A stretch of DNA of 63,636 nucleotides, counting the filler, from Rozella allomycis CSF55 (Eukaryota), in NCBI GenBank assembly GCA_000442015.1. It is 9 parts of 9 records of this genome, joined end to end, with 100 filler letters (N's around TTAATTAATTAA, not from the genome) between each part and the next. Parts side by side here need not be neighbours in the genome. Positions count along the whole stretch, not along the records: positions 24,795 to 51,161 come from KE560569.1; 8 more parts are not named here. One strand, given 5' to 3'. Below, piece after piece: positions 45,605 to 61,900 of this stretch. Under the pieces are notes generated by a model. The model ran no database searches. It worked only from the letters and a program-made list of their open reading frames with translations, and had not been told where the DNA came from. Each line of letters starts with the position of its first letter. Positions within the stretch are counted from its first letter, which is position 1. The translations under genes and the position numbers were made by a program.

Positions 45605-46773
45605 ATGAAAATAATACCAGTTACCGTCTTTACAGGATTTCTTGGCGCTGGTAAAACAACAATAATTTTAGATATCTTGTCAAAATGTGATCCAGCTTAT
45701 AAAGTCGCTGTTTTGAAAAATGAATTTGGCGATGTTCAAGGTAATACCTTGTTGATCTCTTATAGTACAAGTGGACAGTCAATTAATGAATCAACAGAAA
45801 GATATGATTGTCGAAGAGATATCTAACGGGTGCTTATGTTGCGTTCTTGTAGGGCAAATAGAAAATGCCCTATTGGACATGAAAAGTATAATTTGATTAT
45901 TCTTTGGCATTAGATAATTATGAGATTGATAGAATAATAGTTNCAAGAGATATCTAACGGGTGCTTATGCTGCGTTCTTGTAGGGCAAATGGAAAATGCC
46001 CTATTGGACATGAAAAGTATAATTGATTATTCTTTGGCATTAGAAAATTATGAGATTGATAGAATAATAATAGAAACATCAGGATCTGCATTTCCAGCTC
46101 CAATCGCATGGCAAATTAGACAGTTAAAGGAACATTTTGCGTTAGATAGCATTATAACAGTGATAGATTGTGTCAATTTTACTGGATATGAAGATACAAG
46201 CTATACTGCTAAACTCCAGGCTCAAGTAATGAAATCTTTAAGCTTGAACAGTACACTGATTTGATTGTATTGAATAAACATGAGTTGGTTTCAGAGAGGC
46301 AATTAGACATTGTGATAGACCATGTAGCCAATTTGAACGACAGTACTCCACGAATAAAGTATAATAAGAGCTCTGGATTATCTACAAACTTGGTTTTTGG
46401 ATTAGACACAAAGTTATTTTCAATGGTTGATCCCTTGAATGTTTGTGACGACGATCATAACAAGGAAGTTGAGTTGTTAACTTTAAAATCTAATGGATTG
46501 TTTATAAATAATTCTTCAAAGACTGAACAAGAATGTTTTACTGATTGGTTAAATACTTTGTCAAAGGAGGATGTGTTTAGAGTGAAAGGATTTGTCAAAT
46601 TGGATGGAAAGTGGCTCATTGTGAATCATGCCTTTGGGAGACCGAACTATTTAGAATTAAATGACGAGAAAGATTTGACCCTTTCAATTGTCGTAATGGG
46701 TCAGAATTTGAACATTTTGAAGAGTCGTTTGAATTCGCATTTTATTAACATTGAAACTGAATACATGAATTAA
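45605..46773 (+). CDS. CobW/COG0523 (G3E) metal-chaperone GTPase
   Basis: IPVTVFTGFLGAGKTT, NEFG, NGCLCC, IETSG, LNK, CobW_C FRVKG. Confidence 0.92.
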
Positions 46774-46841
46774 AAAGAGATTCTTTAATACACTACCCTT
46801 TGATTAAAAACTAGAAATAAATTTTTTTGGAATGTGTTTTA

Positions 46842-49800
46842 TTAGTTTTTGGATGTAAATGACATTTTCCCACTTGTCATGACTTTTGATGATTGCTGCA
46901 ATCTCATTTTAGAGTCACCGATCTTTGATCCAGTAGATTCTTCAACCATAGTCTTTTTTCTATTTTTGGCTTCAGGATCAGTTAAGCATTTGTAAATTTT
47001 GAAGCCGGCTAAAGATATTGTAGTTAGAAAGTGGGGCAGCAACAGGGAGAAAGAAGTGACAATGTAAGCAATATCAGCGGAAGTGACAGTCCATTGAGCC
47101 AAAACGCTAATTAAAGTACCGAATACAACCCAGTTGTAGGTGGCAAAGCCGATTAACTTTGCCTCGTTAAAATCAGATGGAACATTTCTAATAGTGTAGG
47201 CGAGAACGGCAGCAATTAAAGTAATGAAAAGACGGATTCCAACGATACCTGCACTCCAAGTGGAAGTCGAGCAACGATCAGCAGAAATTGTATTGTCGAC
47301 CATCAATGTTTCTGTAGGGACAGGAGCTGAAAGGAACGTCCAAGTAATGAGATATGAGCACATTAAAATAACAGACAAGCCAATGTATCTCATCAAGTAT
47401 GTATCTTTTAGATTTAGATTTCGTTTAACGTGATTGAAAATTCTATCGATTCGATACATTTTAGCCAACAAAGCTGCAAACACAAGAGTAAATCCAATAT
47501 TTTCGAACCAGGCACCAAGAATGCAACTTGCGAAGTAATTCTTTGCTTGAATAGCCAGAGATATAAAAGATAAAATAGATCCAACGATGGTCACAGAAAC
47601 TAAAATATAACTATTTGCTTTAACAACGTGATATTCTCTGAAATGGAATAATAACGCCACGGTCACAATACAGACAATTATCATTATTACAGCGATTGCA
47701 GCAAACCCAATTCTGATACCTGAATTGATGGGTATTACAGGAAGACACTTGGAGAATGAAGAAGAATATCTTTCTGTCAGTGGATTGCATTCGTTGAAAA
47801 CAATTTGAACATACGGATCTTCAGTGGCTGAAGGAAGTGGAACCAAGTTCCCGGGTAACGCAGATATGACGATTCGATATCTTCCAGGCTCATTATTGGC
47901 AAATCTAAGGTTAGTGAAATTGACGATTCCTGTTGATACATCAAGAATTGCTTTCATAGATTCTCCCAAGAACGTCTTGTTATGAATGGCCTCAGTCAAT
48001 TTGACAATCACTGGAGCTTGTAGATTAACAATGCTTGGATTTCCAAAATAATCNCAAATCTAAGGTTAGTGAAATTGACGATTCCTGTTGACACATCAAG
48101 AATTGCTTTCATAGATTCTCCCAGGAATGTCTTGTTATGAATGGCCTCAGTCAATTTAACAATCACTGGAGCTTGTAGATTAACAATGCTTGGATTTCCA
48201 AAATAATCCAATGAATTTACCAGAATGTCTGGAATGCCTTGAGCTAAGTTCATTACAATTCCATCACCAAATGCGTCTGCATTCACAATATTCAACGTTG
48301 ACGCCAATCCTACAAATGTATTTTGTGGAAACGTTTGTAGCAAAGAACTTGTGAGAATCGACTGCGCTGTAGTGGCATATAGAACATACACATTTCCTTG
48401 CACGACATTTCCTTCGCTTGTGGTTGATCCCAAAATGAATCCTTGATTGTCTTTGCCTAAATACGCTAAACCGCTGGATGGATTTAAAGCCGCGGTATTT
48501 CCTTGAATAACCAAATTGGCTCCAGAAATTGTAATATTATTTGTTGTGTCCATATAAATCCCTCCACCTTGTGCTATTGCGTGATTATTCATGATGGTAA
48601 CGTTTGGTCCAATCGACGCTGATGATCCTCCAGTAAAATGTAACGCTCCTCCTCTGTACGCTTGATTTCCAACAAACCTCGCGCCGCTTGTAATATTCAA
48701 AAAAACATCGTCTTGGACAACTAATGCTCCTCCAATATTGCTTACCGAATTTCTTGCCATCGAACACCTTCCAATCAGCCCACTAGAGCCTGCCAGAAAT
48801 GCTATAGCCCCACCAGAACCTCCATTTGTTGTATCGCTGATCTCAGAGTCTCCATCACACACCAACTTTGAATTTGTATTTGATATTGTAATTGGACTTC
48901 CAATAGTCTCTAAGATTTTACTTCCTTGAAGAATGTTAAAATTACATGCACCATAGACAAAGGCCACTGCATTAGCACATCCATTGCATTTGCTTTTAGC
49001 AACAATTGTATTGTACAGATTAAACGTGATAGATGTTTGAACAACAAACGCGCCCCCGGTACTGGGGCTGAAACATGAAGTAAAATTGGAATCCCTAATA
49101 TTTATCAATCCATGGGAAAACGCATAAATGCATCCAGCCTGGTTGGACGCAGAACTATTGTACACTCGCACATTTGTCAAATTGGCCGTCATGTCATTAT
49201 TAAAGAATCCAAATCCACCTGCTGTAGAAGTTAAACCAATAGCATCGAAATCATTCAATATCAAGTTGCAAGAAGCATCGAACATAAAACAAGCACCCCA
49301 GTTCACAGCCGTTGCTCCATAGCAACCACCCCCTGTGGCTATAACTGTAATAGAATTTGTTCCGTAAATAAAACCACCATTATTCCTCGTATATGCATTT
49401 CTTGATACACAATTATTACAAATCAATGTTCTACTACTCGCTATATACATGTCAGCACCATTCAATGCATTGTTTCCTATAAATGTTACATTAGTGAAAT
49501 AATCAGGAACAGTTGAAGAAGAGGCAAAGAACACCCCAGAACCAGCACCATTTACATATAAATTCTGGAATACAACATTGGTAAGATTTAGATTGTAATT
49601 GTTTTGGACGAATATCGCACCTCCATTGGGACCCCAATTAGCACCATAGTTGTTGTTTTTGAACGTAACATTGTTAAGCACTGCATCGCCTCCGAGAATT
49701 AGATAAGGGCAGTTTTCATAAACACAATTTGATAGGGATAATAGACCGGATGATATATATGGCCCGTCAGCAAATGTGCAAAGTTTATAGCCTGTTGGAC

Positions 49801-49864
49801 ATGAAACGAAAGATATTGCACTTCTTATGAAGCTCACAACGAATAGTAATATGGTTAGCATCAT
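46842..49864 (-). CDS. Class C (GABA-B-like 7tm_3) GPCR with Pmp/pectin-lyase-like beta-helix ectodomain; ~955 aa after removing a 155-bp assembly duplication
   Basis: Signal peptide; repeated FxxN...GGA(I/L/F) motifs; seven hydrophobic helices with C..W..IGFTLVF..LAKMYRI.RIF and VPSDFNEAKLIGFATYN; ORFs 48008-49864 and 46842-48011 overlap by an identical peptide around the n at 48054. Confidence 0.88.
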
Positions 49865-50017
49865 TTCGCCGAATTTCCAGCAGCTTGGATACAGATTTTA
49901 GTTAACACACACAATTTACATGACCTAATATATTGTGTAACAAAAACATGCATATGTCTACCTTTTATATCTGTAATAAAAATCTGTGCAACCCTTGCAT
50001 AGCATTCTGATTTTCTG

Positions 50018-51067
50018 ATGAGTTTAAAGCACATTGAGCAATTTCTCAAAGGAACAAATTTGGATAAATGCGTTGCTGTTGTCGTTGGTGGAACTTCAGG
50101 AATAGGACAGGGTATTGCTATTAAGCTAGCATCCCTCAATGCAAAGGTGATAATTGCTGGAAGAAATGCTGAGGCACTAGCGCCAATGAATGATAAGATA
50201 GATGAATTTTACCCAAAAGCTCCGAAAATTGAATTTAAAAAGGTAGATTTGCTGGAATTTGCAGATATTAACCGTTTTACATCAGATCTAAACAATTCCC
50301 TGCCTAAAATTGATTATTTGATCCTCACTGCCGGTATTATGAGAATGGGTGGAAGACAAGATACTTTAAGTGGATTAGACGATAAAATGACTGTCCATTA
50401 TTATTCCAAAGTTGTAGTTATTAAAAATCTAATACCCCTCTTGCAAAGGAGCTTCGGCGCTGGTAATCAACCAAAAGTATTGAGTGTCTTTGCTGCTGGG
50501 TTGGGAAGAATGGTTGATAAAAACGACTTGGATCNAAGTTGCAGTTATTAAAAATCTCATACCCCTCTTGCAAAGGAGCTTCGGCGCTGGTAATCATCCA
50601 AAAGTATTGAGTGTCTTTGCTGCTGGGTTGGGAAGAATGGTTGATAAAAACGACTTGGATCTTAAGCACTGTTACAGTCTTAAAAATGCGGCCGACGCAT
50701 GCTCATTGTACAACGATCTGATGGTACAAGTAAGAGTATAGACGCAGATTTACGTTAGGAATTAGCAAAAGAATACGAAAATGTTTCATTTATTCACGCT
50801 AGGCCTGGTGTGATTGATACACCGTTAATCCTTAAAGGCATGCCGTGGTACATTAAACCAACCTATTATTTATTGAAACCCTTTATGAGATCTCCCGATA
50901 ATTGTGCAAGCTTCATGGTTCATGGAATGCTGAATGCCAAATTTCCTGGATGGCAGCTTCTGAATGAACATGGAGAGCAAATTGAAAAGTGCAAGGATCA
51001 TACCGACGAAAATTCATCACTAGTTTGGAATCATACATGTCAGATTTTAGGTGAAAAACTAAAATAA
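50018..51067 (+). CDS. Short-chain dehydrogenase/reductase
   Basis: VVVGGTSGIG, VIIAGRN, IDYLILTAG, HARPGVIDT; n-duplication at 50536; one intron. Confidence 0.9.
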
Positions 51068-51304: not shown

Positions 51305-54060
51305 GTGGAAGACTTGATCGAAATTGTCTGGGATGGAAACAACTCTCAAGAGAAGTCCCCATCACCAGAACCTCTTGAAGATTCNAACATTAACCATCAT
51401 ATGGACTACTTCAAGTCCACATTTGGTTCTGCTCCAATGGGAAACTATATGGAAGAAATAAATATTGATGTTGAAAGCGATGAAGTTGTTGTTGTTAATG
51501 AAAATTTATTAAGTGATGTTGTTAATCTAAATAATGATAATGAAAGTATCTTACTTGAGGAACCATCTTCCATTCCTTCTTTTAATTCTATTAATATCAG
51601 GCAATCTAATGCGAATCATGAAATTTCTAACTTGCCAGACTCTAATCTTTATTCTTCTTCTTCGTCGCCGTCGGATCCTGGTGAGGTGATGTTGATTGAT
51701 CTTCAATGTCCATCTTCTATTTCTAATCCTCTATCCATATCTAATTTAAATATAATCAAAAATCAAACATTACCTTACCAAGTCGATGCTTCAACTAATG
51801 TTAATCGTGAAATTTCTAACTTACCAGCTTCCCACTCACCAATTCTCTGTTCTTCATCTCCACCTTCATCGGATCTTGGTGAGGTGATGTTGATTGATCT
51901 TCCATGTTCCTCATCTATTTCCAATTCTAATCCTAATTCTATTTCTAATTCTTATTCCAATTCTGATCCTAATTCGAATTCTACCTCTATTATAAATCAA
52001 TCTAAATATCAATCATTACCTTGCCAAGTCGATGCATTAACCTATAATGAGCACCTTACATCTATGTCTAATTCTGTTTTACATCCGGTCTCTTATCCAA
52101 ATTCTAAATTATCTATGGTTGATGTATCTATGAATCAATCATTACCTTGCCAAAACGATACTTCAAGAACAACGGAAATTCACGATTGTTTTTCCCCTGT
52201 GGTTGGCAGAAAGTCTTTCAATTTTAGCGAAACATTTAGAGAAAATTCATTCTTACTCAATTCTTGTGGTCCAAAGGGCTCGGCTTTCACAAACGATTCT
52301 CTTACTTTTGTCTACCCAACAAAAATCTCAAAAGGTCCTAACTCTTCTAATACTTCCCTAATAACTTCGTTTAATGATATTTCCAGGCCGGCGTATCGAA
52401 AGAATTCACTCTTAAACGTTTCATGTTCTTCAAACAACTTCAGTTTGGAAGTCTCTTCATCAAAGCTGGAACATCCGAGTTCTAAAATGGCAACCTTATC
52501 AAACCCATCAATAACTATTGGATCTAAATCTGTGAATAAGTTGAAAATACCTCCTTTTCTATTTTCCTCATGTCCTTCCACCTTGATCCCTGGAGACATC
52601 AAAAATGCTGGTCTCGAGCTGCAAGAAGTTTCATGTTCTCTAAATTCTAAGTTGATACATATTGAACCTAAATTAAAGGATGGAAAAGTGTTACTTCAAT
52701 CTTCTCTTAATCATGACAACCAAAACAAATGGCTCAGCCAGTTTCCTTTTGAACTCAACATGACAGGGAAAGGAAATAAAATGAACTTCGAACAAATACA
52801 TTTATTAAAACATAAAAAATATTCGATGCAAACTGAAAGGGATGGAAACGGATATCATATTTCTTCTGGAGGTGATATTGCTGGAGAGAAGGTTTCTGGC
52901 AACGAAATACAAGATAATTCATTTAATTCAAAGAGCGAAAAAGAGAATACTTCCAAAAATTTCATAATTGACAATCATTCCTGCCCTCCAGATCCTAGTT
53001 CTAACTTAATGAAGAAAGATAATCGAATTACCGCTTCCAGACAATTACATGAGAAACACGAGAAGCATTTCCATACTCCAGATGGAATGCAATCTGACAT
53101 TCAAACGATATTAATTTCATCGCCAAAACAAGAACCCACATCAATTTTAGAAACATCTGTACAAACTAGAATGATTTGTAGTCATCAACAGGGAGAACAT
53201 CCTATAAATACAACGGTTAAACCTAAGTTAAAAATGAATGAATACTTACCAATCAATGCAGAGGATTGTTCTCAGAATTTCTATTCAGAGAATTCCCTTC
53301 TATCTAATACTTCTTCTAATTCCCGTTTTAAAAATGCATTTCAGCTTAGTTTGCCTTCTGGAAACTCTCCAAAGACTACTTCTCTAAAAGTTTCTCCCAA
53401 GGATACTTCTATTTCAAATGTCCCATCTAAAGCCAGGACTTCCTCACCGAATGGAAATGGAAGAAACCTGGTTAAAATATCTAAGATTAAAAAAAGAAGT
53501 ATCTTACCCAGAAAAGAAAAGAACATGCTGGAAACTAAGAGAACGAAATTTCCAGAATTGTCTACACTTACTAAACATGTCTTTAAACGTAAAAACAACA
53601 ATTCTAATAGTATTTTAAAATATTTTAAAGTCGAAAGCGATCTTGAGTGCGAAGAGGGAGGCGAAAAGCCCCACGACGTAATGAGAAGTGGTGAGGGTGG
53701 GGAACCAAATATATTTAAGAGAAATAGAGCAGATATAGACATAGATATAGATGTTTCATCAAATAAAGAAGAACAATTCAGAAGAGATAACGGAAAAATA
53801 GTTGTAAATGGAGAAAGTGAAGGGGAAGAAATACTGAGACCTCATGAACAAGAACAAGAAATCCCAATTCAAGAAGGAGTAGAGATATTAGATGATGATG
53901 AGGGAGGAGTAAAGGAGAAAGGAGATGTAGTCGAGAGGCATAAATTCAACTCGGATAAAGTGATATTAGAAGATGATGAGGGGGGAGTAGATGTACTGAT
54001 GGGCACGGAATTTGATCGATTCGAAACAGAAGTAGAAAAGGGAGGAGTAAAGGAACAGGG
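51305..54060 (+). CDS. Long intronless Ser/Asn-rich low-complexity ORF of unknown function (open at 3' end)
   Basis: >900 uninterrupted codons in AT-rich DNA; internal repeat EISNLP..PSD.GEVMLIDL.C.SSISN; acidic C-terminus. Confidence 0.5.
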
Positions 54061-54287
54061 NNNNNNNNNNNNNNNNNNNNNNNNNNNNNNNNNNNNNNNN
54101 NNNNTTAATTAATTAANNNNNNNNNNNNNNNNNNNNNNNNNNNNNNNNNNNNNNNNNNNNATGCTGGTTTGAGGCTGTGCGAGTGGGAGTATAAAGATAT
54201 TCAAGTATCCATTGGAACTCAAAGCGGAAGGCAAAGAAGGTAAATAACTGTAAGGTGAAATAAAAAAGGTAAAGCGATGCACAATAA

Positions 54288-54359: not shown

Positions 54360-54997
54360 TTTGTCGTTCCTTTTTTCCCTCCTTTCTTGGGCTTAAAAAC
54401 GCAAAAAGTATGGGCTGCAAACTTAAAAAGTTTACGCGANAAAAGTATGGGCTGCAAACTTAAAAAGTTTACGCGAGGTCAAAAGTGGGCTTATGAGAGT
54501 AAATCGATGGGCTGGGAAAATATGTGACCCAAAATCTTCAATCCCCATAATCCTATCAATATTCTCATCATGTATCAACAGCACCTCCTCAAACAATAAT
54601 TACCTCATATCCCAGTTTAATAAAAGGTTCCTAACCAGGTGACAGGGGCAGGCAAACCACTGGTTCTAAAAGAAATACTATCATTAATTTGGTTTTGGAA
54701 AAATTGAATCAATGCTACTTCAGAAACATTGTTGCAAAATAATAATAATGCATTTACTAAACCGTTTGAGTATTAAGAATCATATAATAATGCTTCAAAT
54801 ATAGCTAAAATGAGAGATGGAAAACAAAGAGCTCAAGGGGAACAATTTGATTATGAAGCTTCAATGTTTTATACATTATTCATGGATAATCCAAATAATG
54901 CTTCAACTAGTGATAAAAATGTGTTAAATGAATCCAAATCTCATTTTGGCGCTTCTAGGGGTGAAGCGTCGCTGTCATGTTGATATATTTGTATCAA

Positions 54998-58902: not shown

Positions 58903-61900
58903 CTAACGGTTGTGCTCGCTTTGCTCGCATTGTACCATTCTTAGCAAAAAACATATTTCATTAAAACAATTAACAAATCTATTTACATGGGTCACAACTG
59001 TAAAGTGCAGGAGCGAAAGATATATTAATTGACATGTGCAATTAACTTTCCGGATAGTGGGGTGTGGTGGATTTGCAGGACTGAGATGTCGTTCATAAAT
59101 CTTGCATGCGATAAAGGCACCTACAGTTGTCCATGAGTAAACACAGGACCTGATAAAACGATGCCTACCTTTTTCAACGTCTGACCCTGCGCTTTGTTTA
59201 TGGTCATGGCAAAGCACAATCCGACAGGAAATTGCTTTCTTCGTAATACAAATGGTAAGGGTTGAGGGGCTTAAAACAATGCGGGATAAACACTCTTTGG
59301 CCTTTAAATTTTTCTAGCGCGATTTCAGCATCGATATGATTGGCACCCAGGCCACGAACTATTAACCGGGTGTTATTACGTAACCCTTGGTACGGATCTA
59401 AATTTCGTAACAAACTATTGGCACGCCTATGTTAAGAACCAATTTGTGGGCGGGTAATCCATTGACAATAAGCGAGTTTTAATATTCAGTGGAAAACAAT
59501 CTGGCTTCTTCTGCATCTTCGACGCTATCAGCACTATCATATGTCTTAGAAAACCCTTGAATTGACTCCCGGATTTGATCGTTTATGAAATCAACATCCG
59601 AGTTTTGTGGCGTTAAAATCGCACTTTGCAAGATATTCTGTATTCGAACGATGTTGATGCAAGTCGGGAAACACAGTGTTGATGAATGTGTCCATGTTAT
59701 TGGTCTCAATGACAATATCTCGTGGTAGCATCATTAGATTCTCGGCATTGTTAGAACGCCTTCCTGCTCCGATTTCTATGGGGCAGTTTGCAAAGTCATT
59801 ATGCATAGCCCTATTGTTAGATGTTAGATGAAATCGATTTAATTGTGGCCAAATATATGAGTGTCGCAATGCTTCCGCTACAATATCGTGTCTGCCATCA
59901 GTTATCACGTAGCACGACTTTGACAAAAATCTCACCCCACAAAGAACAGGCACGCGGCCAAACAATTCATTGCAATTGCGCACATCTCGTAAACTACGCT
60001 CGCCGGGCTCAATGGCATATCGATGAACATAGGTATTTCGTCCCAGATCTCAACATGTCCGCTAACCGGCCTTGTACTGGTATGTTGCATGTACGGTGAC
60101 CATCTAATGTTAAAGGAACGTTAAATTTATAATGAGCTGTGCGTCCCCTTGCAACAAATATGCGCCGATATAGCTGGATGCCACAGCTAGAACGATCTTA
60201 CCCTTACTTCTATGCTACGCCAGAAAGACCGTGTAGAGGAATGTCTTGTCAGAGCCACCTGGCTATCCACAAAACAACTCACCTGATTGCCACCGTTAAG
60301 CACTACGTTAGTTACATGGTCAAACTGCATCTATTGTGTCTGCAGAATAATTCAATTTATCGGCGATCAAGTCATTGTCATTAAAACATTTACTGTATTT
60401 GCATCGGCATGATCGTCATATATTTGTGGGAGACCTGGATTGGTATGATAAAGTTCACCTTGAAAACTTAGTAGTTCACGAATAGCTATGGTTACGTTGN
60501 ACTATCATGGGGAGACGGTTCCGGAGTTCATCGAAAGATTCCAAGATCTTTTGGCGGAAAAAGTTCACCTTGAAAACTTAGTAGTTCACGAATAGCTATG
60601 GTTACGTTGTTGTACCTTTCATTGTCCGGCAAGTGGTCAAAATCTTCTGAAAGGGCATGCTTATGTGCGTTCCATAATTCGGATATATTTTGCGGTGCAC
60701 CAAGCGTCAGTATGGTAACAAAAAGCTGTCGCAGCATAGTGTGTGGCATCTTCCAAACATTGGTTATATTCTCTGTTGTCATCAATTAATCTCCGGGCTG
60801 CCGCTGCTCCTTTGAAATGTTCGCAAGAAAGAAAATGACGTCGCACCTTNCAGCATAGTGTGTGGCCTCTTCCAAACATTGGTTATATTCTCTGTTGTCA
60901 TTAATTAATCCCCGGGCAGCCGCTGCTCCTTTGAAATGTTCGCAAGAAAGAAAATGACGTCACACCTTTGACCGTTTGTATTAACATTGGCACATGACAT
61001 CGTACACACAGACGGCGAGACAGAGTAAAGTCTATGTATAACATTCTGAGATCGTTGTCTACGGCGCCATAAATTTTTCATCCACACATGTGACTTGTAC
61101 ACATATGTGTTCAAATACTTTACGGACTTTACGGATGAACATATCGCAATGTTTGTATGGCATTGAAATTTCATAACAAACAAATGGTTGCACGGTAGAA
61201 TCCATTAATTTTTAATGCTCACCGCCCGGCGGTTTATAACCTTCTTAATCTCACGATGGTTTGGCGACGTCGATACATTGGGTAGCCATTAGTGTGGATC
61301 AGTTTGACTCATGTATGGAGATTGGGGGTTAATGGGTTACATAAACACATCTGGCTTTCCAAACTCACGTACGATTGACATTGAATCCTGGTATATTTAC
61401 AGCATAGCTCTAGGACATGCGGTAAAGCTTGATGGTAAAACGATTCGTCGTCCGACACGTTTATTATTATTTGCAAAAGCATCTTGAAGGCCTTGGTAAA
61501 GTTCAGATCTTATTTTTCGCTAATGAGTTCTAAAATAGTTAAATCGCCCTGTTTAATTTTTGGAGTATTGATCCACAATAAATTGTTAAAAAAGTTTTCC
61601 GCCTAAATGAATTGGATGATTTTGGGGTCATCAGTACGAAGCTGTAAATAAAACGATGTCTATTGGAGTTGAGTTATACGTCGGCCTCTTGTATTCATAA
61701 AATTGGGTGTCCATCCTGACTCACCATGCGGAAACAAAAGTGGATATTGTAAAGGGTCGTAGTGCCTGCTCAACTCCGAAATTGTTTTCAAACTATTATC
61801 ACGATGTCTCAAAATAAATTCACGCTTGTTTTTTTCATTCTCATTATCAATTATTAAAACGGAAACATCGTCAGCAGTAGGTAAATTATGTCTTCGTAAA

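Follow-up and report, generated by a model that had tools for sequence, protein, structure and literature searches.

A Rozella allomycis gene for a class C receptor with a predicted beta-helix ectodomain in place of a Venus flytrap

Introduction

A 63,636-nucleotide (nt) stretch of draft DNA from Rozella allomycis CSF55 (assembly GCA_000442015.1; hereafter the window) carries at 46842-49864 one intact, intronless gene for a 955-residue class C G-protein-coupled receptor (GPCR) whose ectodomain is predicted to be a right-handed parallel beta-helix. We are highly confident of the order of its parts, namely a likely signal peptide, a predicted Cys-capped beta-helix, a beta-rich linker, a disulfide-type Cys hairpin, a class C seven-transmembrane (7TM) domain and a short cytoplasmic tail. 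Taken as one claim, the reading that we favor, in which this architecture uses its beta-helix as a ligand sensor and relays to a G-protein-coupled 7TM domain, has in our judgment somewhat better than an even chance of being right. Class C receptors are textbook Venus-flytrap machines; the flytrap is typical of the class, though not universal, and the NCD3G domain is present in metabotropic glutamate receptors (mGluRs), CaSR and T1R but not in GABA-B receptors. We know of no ligand for any class C receptor with a beta-helix. As far as the accessible text of the source goes, the architecture itself has been known since 2016 from gut fungi (PMC5168858), and the Rozella gene is a further member rather than a new kind of system.

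A single gene behind an assembly duplicate

As assembled, the minus strand gives two open reading frames (ORFs), 48008-49864 (618 residues) and 46842-47957 (371 residues), around a single n at position 48054, an arrangement that invites a reading as two separate genes or as a broken gene or pseudogene. The n lies between the copies of a direct repeat, 47900-48053 and 48055-48208, which form one family of 154 nt each, with 97% (97.4%) identity and a start-to-start spacing of 155. The copies differ at four pairs of positions (47937/48092, 47969/48124, 47973/48128 and 48003/48158), and because both encode the same 51 residues (DYFGNPS...NLRF), all four differences are synonymous. With 155 nt removed, the ORF has 955 codons plus a stop and no internal stop whichever copy is kept. 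A joint from 48003 to 48159 that skips these 155 nt is found in Logan contigs of DNA runs X1, X2 and X3, which come from three studies, and the shorter side of the joint has 222-255 letters. An X1 contig of 8218 nt spans 46700-50000 and differs from the window by that skip and five substitutions. Additionally, P0003, a partial 861-residue protein from another assembly with the source name Rozella allomycis CSF55, aligns gaplessly to the joined ORF, differs from it at 7 of its 861 residues and crosses the junction with a single copy of the 51 residues. Flanking direct duplicates occur at four of the 26 single-N sites of the window (48054, 50535, 54440 and 60850).

The repeat around the n is thus a scaffold-join artefact, and the reading as two genes or as a broken gene, to which we leave next to no probability, is already refuted at the DNA level. 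The single intronless ORF of about 955 residues that a sequence-only reading had obtained by removing 155 base pairs is upheld, with exactly 955 residues and with one copy of the repeat in the contigs of three runs and in P0003. The likeliest cause of the artefact is that a scaffolder butted two slightly different haplotype ends together, because the contigs skip the extra copy, P0003 has one copy, similar duplicates stand at other single-N sites and alternative letters are present in the reads. X2 and X3 contigs show alternative letters at at least 40 positions within 46700-50000, often with one third to one half of the summed depth, which hints that the sequenced DNA came from two haplotypes or from varying strains.

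The duplicates measure 154 nt (97.4% identical) at 48054, 126 nt (97.6%) at 50535, 36 nt (100%) at 54440 and 118 nt (95.8%) at 60850. The same artefact probably breaks other genes too; for example, the short-chain dehydrogenase ORF at 50018-50551 runs into the duplicate at 50535.

A class C seven-transmembrane domain

The C-terminal part of the protein is firmly assigned, from its sequence, to the class C (glutamate-family) 7TM domains. The 7TM-side piece of the protein (P0002, window 46842-48053, minus strand; P0001 denotes residues 1-603) matches Pfam 7tm_3 (PF00003) at an expectation value (E) of 5.8e-35 over profile positions 3-243 of 251; its 121.6 bits exceed the cutoff of 33.5, and this HMMER-type check upholds the class C call made from sequence alone. 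Hydropathy gives seven hydrophobic segments between residues 669 and 898, beyond the N-terminal one. Searched against the PDB, P0002 has 65 distinct matches at E<=0.001, of which the best 60 are all class C receptors, led by mGluR6 (5e-13), GPR158 (1.9e-11) and then mGluR4. A profile of the receptor family, described below, puts GABA-B2 first (E 5.1e-31, 110.6 bits), with GPR158 at 83 bits and mGluRs at about 82 bits, and its PDB matches, all 60 listed, lie at profile positions of at least 633. The hallmarks that had been called GABA-B-like can therefore keep that name for the family profile, which ranks GABA-B2 first, but not for the single sequence, which is nearest mGluR6. An NCBIfam search of the receptor gave nothing meaningful (best E 0.28).

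The mGluR6 alignment places LLAKMYRIDRIF of transmembrane helix (TM) 3 opposite LLtKtnRIyRIF and VPSDFNEAKLIGF of TM6 opposite vPetFNEAKpIGF, and it also retains the Cys atop TM3, the Cys of extracellular loop 2 (ECL2) and the K.Y...PE that follows TM7. The TM3 K..RI..IF and TM6 FNEAK motifs take part in mGluR activation. In P0002, C177, R201, I202, F206, N296, E297 and K299 are invariant in 11/11 family sequences, a Capsaspora protein included, and C261 is nearly so.

Structure prediction agrees with this assignment. An AlphaFold2 model of P0003 (predicted local distance difference test, pLDDT, 82.5; predicted TM-score, pTM, 0.65) has helices at 663-689, 694-721, 727-758, 769-794 and 817-840 and the beginning of a sixth. 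Compared with the PDB by Foldseek, this model has 123 matches at E<=0.001, the best being class C receptors with 7ewl_A (GPR158) on top at 2.2e-6, and VIA-align of residues 660-847 gives Z 17.4 to mGlu2 (7mtr_A) and Z 17.0 to a GABA-B chain. No Pfam match to ANF_receptor, the Venus flytrap, was found in the receptor at E<=1, and none to NCD3G; between the linker and TM1 there are only C641 and C655. A self-association prediction for two copies of P0002 residues 1-365 scored 0.00 in a run without controls, and speaks neither for nor against dimerization.

A predicted beta-helix ectodomain

The N-terminus is likely a signal peptide, as had been proposed; that call is judged by hydropathy alone, and the model has a low-confidence helix at residues 2-20. 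All 11 N-x-S/T sequons fall at residues 65-597, with 9/11 of them within residues 22-480, and together with hydropathy they indicate that the N-terminal part is extracellular, in a type-I orientation.

Residues 22-480 are confidently predicted to form a right-handed parallel beta-helix, related at the profile level to the Pmp and Beta_helix families. The AlphaFold2 model of the ectodomain (pLDDT 86.6, pTM 0.84) has regular short strands from residue ~40 to ~470, which we read as ~16-17 rungs of ~27 residues. When this model was compared by VIA-align, which works independently of Foldseek, with 48,161 chains, 167 reached Z>=8; the best was Vag8 (7akv_G; Z 31.3, root-mean-square deviation 2.6 A over 399 residues), followed by a cyanophage tailspike (7eea_A, Z 28.0), the phage Andhra tail (8egr_A, Z 28.0) and pertactin (2iou_H, Z 26.3). 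Among the matches listed (the best 50 of 167), every entry is a right-handed parallel beta-helix, and the whole-protein model gives the same picture (Z 29.0 to 8egr_A). The beta-helix that the sequence-only reading had proposed is thus what AlphaFold2 predicts, with Vag8 as its nearest structural neighbor.

The repeats that had suggested this fold fare unevenly. Where about 12 units of the FxxN..GG type had been described, the strict motif GG[AFGILV][ILFVMAY] has 8 matches at 7 sites where 1.5 are expected, and 0/2000 shuffles reach 8. FxxN is not enriched, with 5 observed against 3.7 expected and 620/2000 shuffles reaching 5. Among relatives, Chlam_PMP (PF02415) scores only 16.5-18.8 bits, under its cutoff of 20.6, and Pfam Beta_helix (PF13229) is passed by two (P0018, 4.5e-13; P0023, 7.6e-6). 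The family profile collects 921 proteins at E<=1e-5, and PF02415 and/or PF13229 is present in 107 of the best 120 of these 921; long repeat proteins outrank true family members in that search because it scored only the 8000 candidates sharing most words.

A conserved linker and Cys-hairpin stalk

Between the predicted beta-helix and the membrane lie two elements that the family conserves. The linker, which had been noted as a DYFGN, beta-rich segment, is present and is conserved across the family in the pattern DYFGNP...PVIV...GE..KAILD...F..L...PG.Y; in the P0003 model its strands are at 547-553, 568-573, 585-587, 595-598, 601-603 and 609-617. A hidden Markov model (HMM) of the linker matches 20 of the 276 proteins collected, and these 20 are all the receptor family or its fragments or pieces, the Capsaspora protein included. 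When the linker (P0002 residues 1-108) was looked up in the ESM Atlas, the best values, 0.79-0.82, were no higher than those of shuffled sequences can be, and no family emerged. The D.FGNP motif recalls, as an unconfirmed impression of ours, bacterial Ig-like domains. The Cys pair that had likewise been pointed out is also conserved: its two cysteines (C89 and C103 of P0002) are invariant in 11/11 aligned family sequences. The coordinates of all parts of the gene are collected in Table 1.

Table 1. Features of the receptor gene in window coordinates
Feature	Coordinates	Strand	Evidence
Whole gene	46842..49864	minus	3023 nt as assembled; true coding sequence 2868 nt / 955 residues once 155 nt are dropped
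Artefactual segment	48054..48208	no strand	single n + repeat copy 2 (154 nt); copy 1 at 47900-48053
Hydrophobic N-terminus, likely signal peptide, residues 1-20	49805..49864	minus	Kyte-Doolittle peak 2.21 at residues 2-20
Cys-rich cap (C22, C29, C47, C52) and predicted right-handed parallel beta-helix, residues 22-480	48425..49801	minus	AlphaFold2, VIA-align, GG motif
Predicted end of beta-helix, residues 481-546	48227..48424	minus	short alpha-helices 497-505 and 508-511 and further strands (DSSP of models)
Beta-rich linker domain, residues 547-620	47850..48226	minus	conserved columns, strands; span includes the artefactual copy 48054-48208
Cys-pair hairpin stalk (C641, C655), residues 633-657	47739..47813	minus	strands 633-638, 646-649, 654-657; directly before TM1
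Class C 7TM domain, residues 661-896	47022..47729	minus	Pfam 7tm_3, PDB matches, Foldseek, VIA-align
TM7 end (KIYKCLTDPE) and cytoplasmic tail, residues 897-955 + stop	46842..47021	minus	translation; mGluR6 alignment through ...PKtYviLfhPE

Family and distribution

An exhaustive HMMER search with the ectodomain (P0001) against 1.84 billion representatives found 255 proteins at E<=0.001, a number that falls to 23 at 1e-10 and to 6 at 1e-30. A small family aligns in one stretch through residue ~600, and the other matches are multi-stretch repeat matches. The 7tm_3 domain is present in 10/14 full-length-type relatives, the other four being truncated or partial records. Source names of the relatives are Chytriomyces hyalinus, Chytriomyces spp., Siphonaria sp., Obelidium, Chytridiales sp. 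JEL 0842, Rhizoclosmatium spp. and Polychytrium. Outside the fungi, Capsaspora CAOG_02154 (P0162, 1465 residues) has 7tm_3 at 5e-52, and BLASTP aligns it with the Rozella protein as one segment, 912 columns long (E 1e-24), that runs from helix to linker to Cys pair to 7TM. Identity to the chytrid and Capsaspora relatives is 24-36%. From these sequences, the receptor family is conserved full-length in Chytridiomycota, with the same layout in Capsaspora.

A quick maximum-likelihood tree of 17 proteins gathers the fungal sequences into one group (SH-like approximate likelihood ratio test, SH-aLRT, 99), apart from Capsaspora, P0131 and P0173. Rozella is weakly placed within the fungal group (82-83), outside a clade of Chytriomyces, Siphonaria, Obelidium and Rhizoclosmatium (99), and these placements come with long branches and a quick search only.

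The wider collection holds several further observations. Three environmental proteins, P0017 (541 residues, on a 1776-nt metagenome contig), P0023 (816 residues) and P0027 (1141 residues), carry the family linker, with a 7TM domain in P0023 and P0027; by sequence, the family is present in uncultured organisms, and P0027 groups with Polychytrium in the quick tree (SH-aLRT 100). P0131 (1041 residues) and P0173 (1629 residues) combine Pmp-type repeats with a class C 7TM domain, are negative with the linker HMM and stand with Capsaspora on long branches in the tree; going by their sequences, the architecture may exist in these two in another version, distinct from the first. In P0011 (Chytriomyces sp. 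MP71, 2415 residues) and P0158 (Siphonaria sp., 1347 residues) the receptor is joined to CLU/eIF3_p135/TPR or CTU2 domains, and these are probably merged neighboring gene models, not real fusions.

Relation to known receptors

The closest precedent by architecture is the set of ~100 class C GPCRs from the anaerobic gut fungi Neocallimastix, Anaeromyces and Piromyces, ~30% of which have a pectin-lyase fold/parallel beta-helix repeats instead of ANF, with carbohydrate binding proposed, and none of which has a nine-cysteine domain (Seppala et al. 2016, PMC5168858, in its accessible text). What the sequence-only reading had said of such receptors is correct. Like the Rozella receptor, the gut-fungal proteins join a class C 7TM domain to a large beta-helix (IPR011050/IPR012334) that replaces the flytrap, and lack NCD3G. 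They belong, however, to rumen fungi and not to a cryptomycotan parasite, and the likeness is one of architecture, taken from the published description, not of sequence; no Neocallimastigomycota appeared among the named sequence relatives of the receptor. The linker and Cys hairpin of the Rozella family go unmentioned in the accessible part of that description (PMC5168858).

The sequence relatives in chytrids and Capsaspora (for example Chytriomyces hyalinus KAJ HDU78_008272, which is P0004; Polychytrium P0021/P0045; and CAOG_02154) are colinear with the Rozella protein through Cys cap, beta-helix, D.FGNP linker, Cys pair and 7tm_3, although the Capsaspora protein, at 1465 residues, has a far longer helix. 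The metazoan mGluR, GABA-B, GPR158/179 and GPR156 receptors share with it the 7TM fold, the motifs and the TM3-ECL2 cysteines, and GABA-B receptors likewise lack NCD3G. They differ in the ectodomain, which is a Venus flytrap (mGluR, GABA-B) or a Cache domain (GPR158) where a beta-helix is predicted for Rozella, and in that the Rozella protein adds a beta-rich linker before the stalk. Chlamydial Pmp and autotransporter passengers (Vag8, pertactin, Ag43) share with its ectodomain the predicted fold, the enriched GGA(I/L/F)-type turns and relatedness at the profile level, whereas the Rozella receptor has no autotransporter barrel, has a eukaryotic 7TM anchor, does not reach the Chlam_PMP cutoff and is not enriched in FxxN.

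Earlier surveys touch this family from the side of the glutamate receptors. Glutamate-family receptors have been reported in chytrids, Allomyces and Capsaspora, with more than 90% of N-terminal domains being periplasmic-binding-protein-like, and the words 'pectin' and 'beta helix' do not occur in the accessible text of that study (Krishnan et al. 2012, PMC3251606). A 2025 eLife survey that includes the Rozella proteome notes, in the portion available, that the N-terminal domains of glutamate receptors are more diverse in filastereans and holomycotans, and its domain lists may already contain the Rozella protein (PMC12716839). In the accessible parts of the literature on Rozella/Cryptomycota GPCRs, Rozella G proteins and chytrid class C GPCRs, we came across no account of receptors of this kind outside gut fungi, nor of the conserved linker-hairpin family.

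Proposed mechanism and its alternatives

How might such a receptor work? We propose that the rigid beta-helix, a long rod that its sequons make glycosylatable, stands in for the Venus flytrap as the ligand-binding module. Long beta-helix rods bind extended ligands on their flanks in adhesins, tailspikes and glycan-active enzymes, and by analogy with beta-helix adhesins and glycan-binding proteins, an extended ligand, be it a polysaccharide, a glycoprotein or a cell surface, would probably be bound along the flank of the helix. The stiff linker and the Cys hairpin, the latter seated on ECL2, would then relay occupancy to the 7TM bundle, and the bundle, like other class C receptors, would act on a heterotrimeric G protein. 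That the receptor senses a polymer or surface ligand is plausible.

Several points weigh against this proposal. Only 14 aligned sequences went into the model that supports the beta-helix fold, and Foldseek of the ectodomain model against the PDB gave no match at E<=0.001 (best 9.8e-3), so that the fold call rests on VIA-align; the top sub-threshold Foldseek rows are PL6 lyases, Ag43 and tailspikes. The receptor's own ectodomain has no significant Pfam match, Chlam_PMP reaching E 0.37 and 11.6 bits against the 20.6 cutoff and Beta_helix (PF13229) not matching the Rozella protein. For Capsaspora P0162, our Pfam scan (E<=0.001) gave 7tm_3 and not Beta_helix, whereas the precomputed list has PF13229. 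The P0003 record lacks TM7, so the modeled bundle has six helices, and TM7 is placed by the Pfam alignment and hydropathy. Additionally, many structural neighbors of the ectodomain are glycan lyases and hydrolases, next to the adhesins, so that we only assume binding to occur without catalysis. Finally, a ligand, G-protein coupling, surface location and expression are all presumed.

The same evidence bears on three other ways of understanding the protein. It could be a host-recognition receptor on Rozella zoospores that senses the Allomyces wall or surface and triggers attachment and encystment, as the sequence-only reading had suggested. The architecture suits a surface sensor, the zoospores of an obligate parasite such as Rozella must locate their host, and chytrid zoospore sensing of chemical cues is called poorly understood in the accessible text of one source (PMC12115818). 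The distribution of the family speaks against it: Chytriomyces, Rhizoclosmatium, Siphonaria, Obelidium and Polychytrium all have full-length relatives, and Capsaspora has a protein of the same layout, so the receptor predates Rozella parasitism and is not a Rozella invention. Several of the Chytridiales and Polychytrium organisms that carry relatives are, we presume, free-living saprotrophs. The suggestion thus gains no support from the family, and we regard host recognition as unlikely.

The protein might instead be an adhesin or scaffold without classical G-protein coupling, in which the 7TM domain is a membrane anchor or an RGS-type (regulator of G-protein signaling) scaffold like the orphan receptors GPR158/179 and the beta-helix serves cell-substrate adhesion. 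The closeness to GPR158, which is the second-best PDB sequence match (1.9e-11) and the top Foldseek match (7ewl_A), favors this, as do the best ectodomain neighbors, which are autotransporter passengers and adhesins (Vag8, pertactin, PfbA). We nevertheless consider it quite unlikely, given that the TM3 K..RI..IF and TM6 FNEAK motifs, activation motifs in mGluRs, are conserved family-wide and that the family profile scores GABA-B2 at 110.6 bits versus 83 bits for GPR158. A receptor-tethered enzyme, with the beta-helix as an active polysaccharide lyase, hydrolase or epimerase on a 7TM anchor, would account for the many listed neighbors that are PL6 lyases, alginate epimerases, chondroitinase B, polygalacturonases and tailspike depolymerases; however, identity to those enzymes is 5-13%, the Pfam scan contains no carbohydrate-active enzyme (CAZyme) family and the sequence relatives are Pmp/Beta_helix repeat proteins, and we judge catalysis to be very unlikely. 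The proposal of a ligand-sensing beta-helix that relays to a G-protein-coupled 7TM domain is the one that we retain.

Genomic setting and origin

The receptor gene sits among ordinary eukaryotic genes: the end of a CobW-family GTPase lies 68 nt from its stop codon and the start of a short-chain dehydrogenase 153 nt from its start codon, with PEX11 and PTPA more distant. Its GC content (guanine plus cytosine) is 0.384, compared with 0.345 for the window and 0.325-0.371 for neighboring ORFs. A foreign origin of the gene was considered and rejected, as its GC is near that of the window and ordinary eukaryotic genes are 68 and 153 nt away.

The ORF is uninterrupted and colinear with relatives. Rozella has an intron density of 2.53 per kb of coding sequence in the accessible text of the source (PMC8476143); at that density about 7 introns would be expected on average in 2.87 kb, so that their absence is notable. 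Beyond the missing introns, we found nothing that points to retroposition, and nothing for an expansion of the family either: tblastn within the window with P0001, P0002 and P0004 found only the receptor gene itself, and among the relatives whose names were looked up the receptor is the sole Rozella protein. The idea of an expanded family, raised from the sequence alone, thus lacks support. Contigs of one metatranscriptome run (X11, same species label) include none placed on the receptor gene, which weighs neither way.

The CobW-family neighbor shows a cobW nucleotide-binding domain at 45989-46264 (+) and CobW_C at 46423-46773 (+), each in its own ORF, with 158 nt and a change of frame between the two; these are probably one gene with an intron, in contrast to the adjoining intronless receptor. 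Farther along the window, at 51401-54112 (+), there is a 903-residue ORF with no Pfam family at E<=0.001 and with N runs just before its start and near its end.

Significance

The draft scaffold now yields a clean full-length receptor sequence, whose ectodomain residues 21-620 are a defined construct. Rozella, Chytridiales, Polychytrium and Capsaspora share the conserved family to which it belongs, and linker and stalk are fixed throughout that family. In the boldest version of the story, which joins several claims and which we hold to be quite improbable as a whole, the protein would be an ancient opisthokont receptor that predates the split of fungi and holozoans, is gated without a flytrap by polymeric or surface ligands, and was kept by Rozella, with its reduced genome, for wall-less, host-seeking stages that sense the Allomyces wall. 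If that were true, the Cryptomycota-Microsporidia lineage would gain its first candidate host-sensing receptor. Zoospores of early-diverging fungi sense chemicals and surfaces in ways that the accessible text of PMC12115818 calls poorly understood. How a rigid beta-helix could gate the class C 7TM bundle is the problem that this receptor opens, and the family offers a tractable entry both to non-flytrap gating and to zoospore sensing.

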